64,000 nt of DNA from a virus (lineage: Duplodnaviria > Caudoviricetes), in the IMG/VR virus record IMGVR_UViG_2706795719_000001, positions 1-64,000 of that record; one strand, 5' to 3'. The notes beneath the pieces are model-generated. The model did not search any database. It had not been told where the DNA came from and was given only the letters and a program-made list of their open reading frames with translations. Of this stretch, positions 2,274-64,000 are shown in pieces (the stretch's first letter is position 1; every line of letters starts with the position of its first letter). Both the position numbers and the translations under genes were made by a program.

Positions 2274-2501
2274 TTAATCAAAAAATCCTGGTCTGTCTTC
2301 AAGTTTTTTATGAATACCGAATAATGCATCTTCGATAGAAATTCCATCTTCAACAATGGCTTCTCTTCTATTATTAAACACTTTAACTTGATAAGCAACT
2401 AATTCTACATGTAAAGCTGTTCTTTCATAAATTGGAAGTACGACTGTCCGTCGTACGCTTCCTTTATACCAAAACCCTACTTCTGTCATGATTTCATCCA
2501 C
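2274..2501 (-). CDS. hypothetical protein
   Basis: 75-aa ORF overlapping the gene 60 3' end. Confidence 0.5.
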   Translation of the reverse strand: MDEIMTEVGFWYKGSVRRTVVLPIYERTALHVELVAYQVKVFNNRREAIVEDGISIEDALFGIHKKLEDRPGFFD

Positions 2502-3022
2502 TCTTTTCTAAGATCTGCATTATCACCAAATAACATTTCGAATAACTCTTCATAATTATCAGGCAATTCCACTATATCGTAAACCGGGTCCCTAACAACA
2601 CGTTTATATTCATTTGAAGTTAAAGAAGCTAGTCCTTTAATATACCGTGGTGCTGACCAGCCTTTTAATTTGGATTTTTCTTTTTCGTATTCTTCTACAT
2701 TATAATACCATTTCTGTTCATTACCTTTTTGAATAATAATTAAAGGTGTTTTACAAAAACGAATTCTTTGTTCTTTATATAATTCAGGCCATTTAGCAAA
2801 GAATGCTAATAGCGAAGGATATATGGAACCTTGTCCAATTATCTCTTTATTTGTGAGGTGTGTCAATGAGTAGCCCGAAGGCTACCCATCAACATCGGCA
2901 TCAGTCATAATAGCGATGTTATCATACATCATATTACTAGCGATAGAAGTTCTTTTAACAATAGTCTGGGCTTTATATTTAGTCATATCAATATCATTTT
3001 TATCGATTTTTGAGAATTTCAT
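2486..3022 (-). CDS. 60: DNA topoisomerase II subunit gp60, expressed by translational bypassing (segments 3022-2885 and 2833-2486, about 161 aa)
   Basis: ATG at 3022 gives 46 codons MKFSKIDKNDIDMTKYKAQTIVKRTSIASNMMYDNIAIMTDADVDG then TAG; resumes QGSIYPSLLAFF...YIKGLASL...LRKEWMKS, matching both halves of T4 gp60. Confidence 0.92.
2834..2890 (-). promoter_or_regulatory. ribosomal bypass (hop) element
   Basis: GAUGGGUAGCC-UUCG-GGCUACUCAUU take-off hairpin containing GGG (2887-2885) and UAG; mini-SD GAG 6 nt before landing GGA (2836-2834), as in T4 gene 60. Confidence 0.88.
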
Positions 3023-3809
3023 TTTTAACCTCGTAATATTCTGTATTTGGTTTCCAGCCTTGTTTAAACATATTTAAGGCCTTCGCGTATAATTTACTTC
3101 GTTTTTCTATTCCTGACTTCTTCATCCATTTAGCAACACCAGTTGCTTTTGGGCGAGATTCATCATAATTTGTTATATACCAGTTGTATAGAGACTCTAT
3201 ATTAACAATAGATTCCTTTTCAGCACCAAACTTATTAAACCAGGGTCTAGAATCATTTACTTCTTTAGCTCTTTTTGTTGCATTATTCCAGTTACCAATG
3301 CCCTTAAGCCCAAGTTCATTTATTTTAGGGTCATCAACTTTGAGACGGTATATTTTCCCTGATTCATCCTTAAAATTTGTTACACCTTTTTCGCCTTCAA
3401 ATCTATTTCCGAAATTGTTTCCAACCCATTCATCTTTATTAAATGTTCCTTTAACAAGCAATTTGCATTTTCCAGTTTTAACATTTCTCATAGATACTTT
3501 ATCAGACATAAATGCTTTAGACCATTTACTAACTGCTTTTCTATGGGCCTTTCTTGCGAATTCATAAGATCGAGAATTTTTATTAGAGTTCAACATTCTA
3601 CCTAAAGCGAAAGCCATTTCTTTGTTTCTATGTATTTTATACAATAACAAATGAGCAAAGAAATGTTCTCTACATGTAAGCTTTACTAAATTAGATTTGT
3701 CGTTTGACCCACCCATAGATCTAGGTACAATGTGATGAATTTCGCCTTCTTCGGCAGGATTTTCCTGCCGAATTTTAATTAAACTATTATATATTTTAGA
3801 GTAATTCAC
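3000..3809 (-). mobile_element. mobA: free-standing HNH homing endonuclease, MobA-like
   Basis: EIHHIVPRSMGGSNDKSNLVKLTCREHFFAHLLL HNH motif; lies between genes 39 and 60, the mobA position in T4. Confidence 0.85.
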
Positions 3810-5340
3810 TAACTTTAACCCAAGTTCCTTTTATTAGAATTTCGTCGTTTTCATTAACTATAACTTCTTTACCATCTATAATAGTTTTAAACCATTGCCC
3901 ATCTTTAGCGTATTCAAATGGAGATTCACCTAGTGTTAATCCTGTAATAGCCATTATATCAAAAGCTTCTTTACTCTTCATTATATCTACATCTTTCATA
4001 CCCCATGTATTTAAGAATTTACCTCTTAAAGGATATCCACCTTGAGTATCTTGAATACGAGAAGTCAATAATTCATTTAAAGCCGAATCTCCTTCTGTTA
4101 AAAACAATGTTGTTCCTTTACCTGGTTTTCCATAAAAGTTTGCTTTAATATGTTTTGCGACTTTGGCTTTTGCTGCTTTTTTAGCTGCTTTAGTGGCCGC
4201 AGCCTGTTCTGCCGCTAATTTACGGGCCAAAACAGCTTCAATAATAGGCATCAAGACGGTTTCAGTCTTCATTAATTGATTGGCAAGTTTTTTAACATCA
4301 ATATCCATGTGGTTTTTAACTTCACCCCATGTATTCGATAAACGTTCTTTTGTCTGTCCATCAAATTTTAAATCAGACATATCACGAACAAATAACAATA
4401 ATGTTAAACATTCTTTAATTCTTGCTTTTGTTACATCAATTTTAAACTTGCGTTTAATCATAGGGATTAATTCGGTACAGAACTCATCCATAAACCAATC
4501 GATATGAGAACCACCTTTCTTTGTATGGATATTATTGACATAAGAAATATGACGGAACCCATCAGGAGATCGTCCTATGGCGATAGAACAATTCTTTTGG
4601 TCATAGATAATAGAATCTTCATCAAATTGTTTTGAATACTTCTTGAAGTTCCCTGCAACCTTTTTACCATTAAATTTGAATTCGATATCAGGAAAAACAA
4701 CTGACATGGTCATTAAACGGTCTAATGTAATATCTTTATAGATATCAGATAAATTAGTATCTTCAAAATGTTCAAAATCTGGAACAAATTTTACTTCGGT
4801 TCCTTTGTATGTAGATTTTTTAGATTTCCAAGAAATATTTTCTGCACCATCAGTACAGTTAACTGTGATTTCATTTTTTCCATCTGAAGTAATACCGACA
4901 AACATAGTAGAAAAAATATTTGTAAGGGCGGAACCCACACCGTTCATGCCACCCGTTTTGCGTTTTGAGTCATCTCCAAAGTTACCACCAGCTCTTGAGC
5001 GGGTCCACGCAGCAACAGGACCTGGAATTTCTTCACCTTCAGGTGTAATAACCATTGATTGAGGTAATCCACGACCGTTGTCTTTAACTGTTACTGTATC
5101 ATTTTCAATAGTGACTTCAATTTTATTAGCAAATTTAAATTCAGTTCTAATAGCTTCGTCAACTGAATTGTCAATAATTTCATCAATAATTTTTACAATA
5201 CCAGGAACATACTTTATGGTCTTATATTCACCAAAAATAAATTGCTCAATATTTTCAGAAGCAGAAGAGCCAATATACATACCAGAACGTTTAATAATGT
5301 GTTCACGGTCACTTAAAATTTTAATTTCGTGGTTACTCAT
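3796..5340 (-). CDS. 39: DNA topoisomerase II ATPase subunit gp39
   Basis: EHIIKRSGMYIGS, EIIDNSVDE, GGMNGVGS, LTEGDSA and PLRGK motifs. Confidence 0.97.
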   Translation of the reverse strand: MSNHEIKILSDREHIIKRSGMYIGSSASENIEQFIFGEYKTIKYVPGIVKIIDEIIDNSVDEAIRTEFKFANKIEVTIENDTVTVKDNGRGLPQSMVITPEGEEIPGPVAAWTRSRAGGNFGDDSKRKTGGMNGVGSALTNIFSTMFVGITSDGKNEITVNCTDGAENISWKSKKSTYKGTEVKFVPDFEHFEDTNLSDIYKDITLDRLMTMSVVFPDIEFKFNGKKVAGNFKKYSKQFDEDSIIYDQKNCSIAIGRSPDGFRHISYVNNIHTKKGGSHIDWFMDEFCTELIPMIKRKFKIDVTKARIKECLTLLLFVRDMSDLKFDGQTKERLSNTWGEVKNHMDIDVKKLANQLMKTETVLMPIIEAVLARKLAAEQAAATKAAKKAAKAKVAKHIKANFYGKPGKGTTLFLTEGDSALNELLTSRIQDTQGGYPLRGKFLNTWGMKDVDIMKSKEAFDIMAITGLTLGESPFEYAKDGQWFKTIIDGKEVIVNENDEILIKGTWVKVSELL

Positions 5341-63148: not shown

Positions 63149-63223
63149 TGGCACACCCACGGAGATTCGAACTCCGGTTACCTGCTCGAAAGGCAGGGGT
63201 CCTTACCACTAGACGACGGGTGT
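63149..63223 (-). tRNA. tRNA-Glu(UUC)
   Basis: cloverleaf; CCTGC-CT-TTC-GA-GCAGG anticodon arm, GTTCGAATC T loop, encoded CCA. Confidence 0.93.
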
Positions 63224-63939: not shown

Positions 63940-64000
63940 TGGAGCGACCTAGGAGAATTGAACTCCTATCTTCTGGGTGGAAGCCAGAAATAATACCCGC
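63940..64000 (-). tRNA. tRNA-Gly(UCC), 5' end outside the window
   Basis: TCTGG-CT-TCC-AC-CCAGA, GTTCAATTC, encoded CCA. Confidence 0.88.

Follow-up and report, generated by a model that had tools for sequence, protein, structure and literature searches.

A putative gene 60-type translational bypass cassette with a 51-nt in-frame gap in a T4-like Proteus phage

Few known departures from collinear decoding are as extreme as the programmed bypassing of ~50 nt, and gene 60 of bacteriophage T4 was, to our knowledge, its sole known example for thirty years. In T4, the stop codon that comes after the take-off codon is no effective competitor of take-off, and mutants are known in which landing takes place on GGG, GGU and even GGC. 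Manning and Atkins (bioRxiv 10.1101/2022.08.31.505936) have described cassettes of this type in 28 genomes representing six clades, Proteus phages included (clade 2: Pm5461, PM2, ProteusX and PmiM). According to that preprint, the conserved signal residues of the nascent peptide are Y16, Q19, V22, R/K24, Y/F33, M39 and T/S40; the 5′ stem-loop upstream, which matters in T4, is reported to be T4-specific and not conserved in other clades, and the 3′ stem-loop past the landing site is poorly conserved across clades. As for the codons, "GGG/GGA in Proteus" is presented as a wobble pair served by one tRNA, along with two stem changes that conserve base-pairing. The cassette is termed "50 nt", and "stops and/or frameshifts" are mentioned in general terms; the 51-nt, in-frame, single-stop geometry of the Proteus cassette is not singled out in the preprint, and the terms 'phage-encoded' and 'tRNA gene' have no occurrences in it.

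The window, i.e. the whole stretch of DNA analysed here (64 kb at the start of a 161,989-bp phage genome, 31% G+C), contains what is very probably a translational bypass cassette of a MobA homing-endonuclease element, which has inserted into the gene for the large subunit of topoisomerase II in a Pm5461-like phage of Proteus (T4-like; Bragavirus). The original prediction, which was made from the letters of the DNA, implied that this variant was novel. In this respect it was mistaken, as the variant is already present in the preprint: in the part of its File S3 that was at hand (10.1101/2022.08.31.505936), the cl2_Proteus_Pm5461 row matches the window cassette, including the C at position 2860 (T in PM2, ProteusX and PmiM). 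Since the lesson had been drawn from the same sequence in 2022, the present scan adds confirmation and not discovery, the increments beyond the preprint being limited to the 51-nt single-stop in-frame geometry and the phage tRNA gene. No later paper on the Proteus cassette, nor an experimental test of it, was found in the literature.

Gene order and anatomy of the cassette

All the features described below lie on the minus strand. The gene 39 homologue (3796..5340; 514 aa), which encodes the N-terminal part of the topoisomerase II large subunit and harbours the Pfam domains HATPase_c and DNA_gyraseB, carries at the end of its product a C-terminal extension derived from the inserted element. 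The end of this gene overlaps by 14 nt with an ORF coding for a MobA-type HNH homing endonuclease (3000..3809; 269 aa; Pfam HNH, 23.2 bits against a cut-off of 21.4), which in turn shares 23 nt with the start of gene 60. The layout is identical in Proteus phages PM2 and SJ_PmiM, the records of which label the homologues as topoisomerase II large subunit and homing endonuclease. Both phages are members of the genus Bragavirus and represent the nearest records for gene 60 (98.9% and 95.3%, respectively). In addition, the endonuclease matches the MobA row of vB_PmiM_Pm5461 in the portion of File S4 of the same preprint (10.1101/2022.08.31.505936) that was available.

The first segment of gene 60 (2885..3022) comprises 46 codons starting with the ATG at 3022 and is an element-encoded N-terminal extension. 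As had been claimed in the original prediction, it ends with DADVDG, the last glycine being specified by the take-off codon GGG (2887-2885; codon 46 of gene 60), and is followed immediately by UAG (2882..2884). The untranslated coding gap, counted from this UAG through the landing codon (2834..2884), is 51 nt long, i.e. exactly 17 codons; both segments of the gene share one frame, and UAG, the sole in-frame stop within the gap, is the only barrier between them, which is again what the prediction had maintained. The landing codon GGA (2834..2836) is preceded by the GAG mini Shine-Dalgarno element (2843..2845), which is positioned 6 nt 5′ of it (spacer AUAAUU) in A/U-rich surroundings. Decoding would resume at CAA (2833-2831), and the codons that follow the landing GGA (CAA GGT TCC ATA TAT CCT) read QGSIYP, onward QGSIYPSLL, so the positions given for this part of the cassette proved correct too. 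Apart from the landing GGA itself (gap positions 49-51), GGN triplets occur in the gap at positions 9-11 only (GGG/GGC inside the stem), and a scan of the gap sequence found none between the stem and the landing codon. The second segment (2486..2833) consists of 115 codons and a stop (2488-2486) and encodes the Toprim C-terminal region (TOPRIM_C, 32.8 bits against a cut-off of 29). When the two segments are joined, the predicted product has 161 aa. With respect to codon usage in this genome, GGG is the rarest glycine codon (6.75 per 1000, as compared to 17.6 for GGA) and UAG the rarest stop, terminating 15 of 172 long ORFs.

Both the take-off codon and the UAG are enclosed by the take-off stem-loop (2861..2894), in which positions 2894-2880 are paired with 2875-2861 and the loop (2879-2876) is part of a CC-UUCG-GG cap. 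The stem was predicted to have 15 bp, including G-U pairs, and a minimum free energy of −22.1 kcal/mol (z = −6.73), and none of 200 shuffled sequences was as stable. The UUCG hairpin of the original prediction is therefore present, but its stem is longer than the 11 bp that had been proposed. In the 64 nt upstream, a 5′ stem-loop was weakly predicted (−11.6 kcal/mol, z = −2.1; 6 of 200 shuffles as stable), and past the landing site a 3′ stem-loop was predicted at 2770..2829 (−15.7 kcal/mol, z = −3.25), which may be the counterpart of the forward barrier of T4.

At the protein level, segment 1 can be aligned with residues 1-46 of T4 gp60 without gaps and with 59% identity. All the residues of the nascent-peptide signal, namely Y16, Q19, V22, R24, Y33, M39 and T40, are present in it, and the alignment also confirmed that TKYK stands in place of the T4 sequence KKYK. 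The cassette fits the features of gene 60-type MobA cassettes, having an N-terminal extension of about 45 aa encoded by the element, the take-off site at DADxDG (its invariant Gly or the Asp before it), the UAG, the stem and a mini Shine-Dalgarno element (GAG, GGG, GGA or AGG; 5-7 nt); as regards its codon pair, GGG and GGA are both readable by the anticodon UCC.

Conservation, covariation and the parental junction

Alignment of gene 60 across relatives, which had been suggested as a check, revealed an identical 51-nt GGG/GGA gap in PM2 and SJ_PmiM. Contigs of three independent public sequencing runs (X1, X2 and X3) span the gap without indels and with one substitution (position 2860); being assembled contigs, they allow presence and the absence of indels to be read, and not read-level variant frequencies. 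Of the public runs listed with the stretch, none is recorded as RNA. A 50-nt gap between two GGA codons, which had been named as a finding that would speak against the prediction, was not seen, the contigs of all three runs retaining the 51-nt GGG/GGA form. That the 51st base and the GGG might stem from sequencing error was considered and rejected, given that three genome records and the contigs from three independent studies agree. In the run contigs, one site is variable within the gap as compared to 4 and 2 sites in the flanking 51-nt coding stretches, and hence the constraint on the gap is no weaker than that on coding sequence.

In the GenBank records of the relatives, gene 60 is given either as a fragment with a TTG start or in the form of two CDS (PM2, L001, 3657-4037; SJ_PmiM, L002, 3501-3641 and 3657-4037). 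This split is likely a systematic mis-annotation, a joined CDS being the expected form, and gene 60 ought to be entered in these records as one joined CDS. This is how T4 gene 60, of the same layout, is annotated.

The take-off stem was also compared among seven cassettes of five clades. In this set, 93% of the cells were paired, whereas the slid controls reached 29-43% only, and six pairs were altered on both sides; these values were matched by none of 500 shuffles. At the pair to which the take-off codon contributes its third base, three of the seven cassettes have U-A, two have A-U and the remaining two G-C, and in no case is this base unpaired. Because its partner covaries across clades, the change from A-U to G-C at the take-off codon is truly compensatory, as originally claimed, and the covariation supports the accompanying suggestion that the take-off stem is under selection.

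The junction between the two segments was tested by a protein-level comparison with phiP4-3, a relative without the insert. In the uninterrupted Topo2L of this phage (...IMTDADVDG-QGSIYPSLLAFFAKWPELYKEQRIRFCKTPLIIIQKG...), the Gly codon is followed directly by CAA. The same junction is also given as ...NIAIMTDADVDG-QGSIYPSLLAFFAKWPELYKEQRIRF..., where DADVDG-QGSIYPSLLAFFAKWPELYKEQRIRF equals segment 1 plus segment 2 of the window, and segment 2 is collinear with the phiP4-3 protein after DADVDG. A hop from GGG to GGA with decoding resumed at CAA would restore the phiP4-3 junction, DADVDG-QGSIYPSLL, exactly. The record of phiP4-3 itself (L003) divides the topoisomerase gene into two pieces (2030-2578 and 2638-3852), with an apparent frameshift near 2578-2638 that is probably a sequencing error in the record.

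Contigs of insert-free relatives were found in runs X1 and X4. Their similarity to the window ends exactly at position 2837, beyond which an uninterrupted topoisomerase is encoded, and it is this precise point of divergence that identifies the landing codon as the 3′ end of the inserted element. In run X1, the insert-free contigs co-occur with insert-carrying ones; natural populations of Proteus phages are therefore polymorphic for the MobA element.

Crossing of the gap and its alternatives

Given the observed anatomy, homology, covariation and parental junction, we infer that bypassing occurs, and the same holds for its efficiency and for the tRNA-Gly that carries the peptide. By homology with T4 gene 60, the course of events may be pictured as follows. 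Once the ribosome has translated the 46 codons of segment 1, the newly made peptide (TKYK...R24...Y33...MT) would act in the exit tunnel. At this point the P site would contain peptidyl-tRNA-Gly paired to GGG, and the A site UAG; the UUCG stem-loop would form and the anticodon would release the codon. No peptide bonds would be made while the ribosome slides across the 51 nt, and re-pairing at the landing site would fall to the same tRNA, the simplest candidate being a tRNA-Gly with the anticodon UCC of either the host or the phage. Decoding restarted at CAA would yield a single 161-aa gp60 with the junction DADVDG-QGSIYPSLL.

ARAGORN, when run on the whole genome, detected 8 phage tRNA genes, all on the minus strand (Glu-UUC, Ser-UGA, Asp-GUC, Gly-UCC, Pro-UGG, Met-CAU, Tyr-GUA and Arg-UCU). 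The cluster begins at 63149 in the window and runs to 64936 in the genome, the end of the window cutting the Gly gene. On the window alone, the program missed tRNA-Gly(UCC), the gene being cut at 64000. The phage tRNA-Gly(UCC) gene of the original prediction thus exists, although not with the span of 63940-64000 assigned to it, its true end being at 64014. A suppressor tRNA with a CUA anticodon was also considered as a phage product and rejected, there being none among the 8 tRNAs found in the whole genome.

The UCC anticodon reads both GGG and GGA by wobble, hence one tRNA can leave the former and land on the latter. To assert that this tRNA "would be needed" was nevertheless too strong, as T4 mutants land on other codons and the gene is also found in the cassette-free phiP4-3. 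The tRNA-Gly(UCC) of the latter phage is 98.7% identical (about 91% in Klebsiella phages), which marks this gene as a part of the phage backbone and not as a companion of the cassette. Since re-pairing in the P site tolerates imperfect pairing and the tRNA is not tied to the cassette, the need for it is not established. On the other hand, a CCC-anticodon tRNA-Gly that reads GGG would be mismatched at the third position of GGA, and for this reason bypassing could be less efficient than that of T4.

The presence of a single UAG in an in-frame gap means that some readthrough product is compatible with the sequence alone. If readthrough were the main route, gp60 would be 178 aa long, with 17 residues containing PSGYSLTHLTNKEIIG between DADVDG and QGSIYPSLL, and both the gap length of exactly 17 codons and the UAG as the only in-frame stop agree with this. 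Such a product, however, would have the invariant Toprim motif DxDxDG split from its continuation, the two being contiguous in the parental gene, and a coding insert would not explain the retention of all the RNA signals of T4 (stem, GAG spacing, no early GGN) or the covariation of the stem. It must also be borne in mind that the phage genome lacks a tRNA with the CUA anticodon, that the homologous cassettes of other clades shift frame or hold extra stops, and that the stop competes poorly with take-off in T4. Readthrough as the main route is thus extremely improbable. Nor does it seem credible, save at a similarly low level, that the cassette is a decayed or inefficient remnant of a GGA/GGA ancestor, in which GGG and the extra base represent slightly harmful drift tolerated because little gp60 is needed. 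The rarity of GGG among the glycine codons of this phage would suit such a course of decay, but the A-to-G change in the take-off codon is matched by a U-to-C change across the stem, the gap is conserved at least as well as the flanking coding sequence, and the variant is fixed in all the Proteus-clade genomes and metagenome contigs examined. Moreover, GGG take-off is likewise paired with GGA landing in a distant cassette (L016, see below).

A further possibility is that two polypeptides are made, of which the 46-aa peptide ends at the UAG and the C-terminal part is initiated separately, e.g. at TTG 2866 (N-terminus MTHLTNKEII), with subsequent non-covalent assembly. A TTG-started ORF (2866-2486) is indeed found among the gene calls, annotations of this kind are carried by the GenBank records of PM2 and SJ_PmiM, and the topoisomerase already functions as a split enzyme (gene 39 and gene 60). 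The two-CDS annotations, however, stem from automatic gene calling, the T4 equivalent being a joined CDS, and the TTG in question is buried inside the 3′ arm of the −22 kcal/mol stem. The sole G-rich run upstream of it (GGG, 2875-2873) takes part in the pairing of the stem as well, which leaves TTG 2866 without an accessible Shine-Dalgarno sequence; the GAG, for its part, precedes by 6 nt a GGA, which is no start codon. Finally, the glycine codons at both ends of the gap and the exact parental junction would have to be put down to coincidence, making separate initiation highly unlikely. Translational bypassing from GGG to GGA is therefore retained as the preferred reading, which is also the one that Manning and Atkins arrived at for this clade.

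Comparison with other cassettes and with T4 gene 60

Gap length varies considerably among the cassettes compared. The frame changes across the gaps of KARL-1 (43 nt), T4 (50 nt) and Thanatos-1 (52 nt), and it is maintained in S16 (48 nt, two stops), in the Proteus clade (51 nt, one stop) and in the metagenome contig L016 (54 nt, two stops). Lengths of 43-54 nt that cover all three frames fit frame-independent re-pairing. Judged by these cassettes, an in-frame gap is not special to the mechanism, and the Proteus clade is unusual only in having UAG as the sole barrier to readthrough.

When metagenomes were scanned for MTDADVDG with a TAG behind it, 3 loci were obtained, of which L016 alone has a cassette. 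In this contig (Ga0209174_10012078, minus strand), the cassette at ~570-651 comprises the GGG take-off codon, UAG, the CC-UUCG-GG hairpin, GAG and the GGA landing codon. The ORFs of the contig are located at 842-2431, 625-780 and 205-558, and the 51-aa N-terminal extension comes directly after the gene 39-like ORF, no endonuclease being present. The cassette was not seen among the rows of File S3 of 10.1101/2022.08.31.505936 in the part at hand. The second locus (L017; Ga0163180_10007781, minus strand, ~3067-3093) is gyrB-like and reads DADVDG-TAG-HIRTLLLTFF, with TAG at the place where Ser or Ala is usual; this in-frame TAG could reflect a reassigned codon, a pseudogene or a sequencing error. 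The third (L018; BNJU01004582.1, minus strand, ~3527-3553), also gyrB-like, has an extra TA right after DADVDG, and AHIRTLMLTFFF continues in the +2 frame; the same hotspot codon is affected here, either by a frameshift or by an error of assembly. An exact-pattern scan of IMG/VR (GAY-NNN-TAG with a UUCG hairpin) gave 5 loci, all of them terminator-like hairpins without topoisomerase context, and no further cassettes.

Mismatched codon pairs were encountered as GGG to GGA (Proteus clade and L016), GGU to GGC (S16, Stupor and nMG13) and GAU to GAC (KARL-1). The reverse order, i.e. Watson-Crick pairing at take-off and wobble at landing, was not seen among the mismatched pairs examined, which amount to ~3 independent codon types. 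It might be proposed on these grounds that natural cassettes obey a rule of polarity, with a wobble-paired take-off codon and a Watson-Crick-paired synonym for landing. Such a rule seems rather doubtful, since the third base of the take-off codon is additionally constrained by the stem and the pattern is suggestive at best. If it were true and acted as a thermodynamic ratchet, the tRNA-Gly isoacceptor that occupies GGG (CCC or UCC) would set the efficiency of bypassing, and the phage tRNA-Gly(UCC) would act as a cofactor of the process. The in-frame, single-stop gap of the Proteus phages would also serve as a reporter provided by nature, with a distinct product for each of termination, readthrough and bypassing.

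Natural variants of this kind reveal which of the bypass signals are essential and which may vary. The pairing of the take-off codon, the stop that follows it, the spacing of the GAG and the signal residues of the nascent peptide are fixed, and gap length, frame and the exact identity of both codons are variable. Salmonella phage S16 resembles the Proteus phages in having an in-frame gap, though one of 48 nt with a second in-frame stop, and hops from GGU to GGC with tRNA Gly-GCC. In Acinetobacter phage KARL-1, take-off is shifted one codon earlier, the codons are GAU and GAC, served by tRNA Asp-GUC, and the frame changes. The byp elements of yeast mitochondria (Magnusiomyces) have no sequence kinship with these cassettes; their gaps are shorter, an unused sense codon occupies the A site, and both the MobA element and the nascent-peptide signal are lacking.

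There is a close likeness to T4, the only one of the gene 60-type cassettes for which bypassing has been demonstrated experimentally, the Proteus cassette being known here from its sequence. Both have a 46-aa first segment with take-off at Gly46 followed by UAG, the CC-UUCG-GG cap and a GAG situated 6 nt before the landing codon. They differ in the take-off codon (GGA in T4, GGG in Proteus) and in the length of the gap (50 nt and 51 nt, respectively), the extra base of Proteus being located between the stem and the GAG. Whereas the gap of T4 shifts the frame and contains a second in-frame UAG, that of Proteus is in frame and has one stop. The stem of T4 (10 bp, −14.7 kcal/mol) is shorter and weaker than the one predicted for Proteus (15 bp, −22.1 kcal/mol), and within the nascent peptide H44 of T4 is replaced by V44 and K14 by T14 (KKYK to TKYK). 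Despite these differences, 43 positions of the gap are identical to the 50-nt gap of T4, and since the insertion also affects the homologous codon and the arrangement of gene 39, HNH endonuclease and gene 60 is shared, a chance likeness between the two cassettes is excluded.
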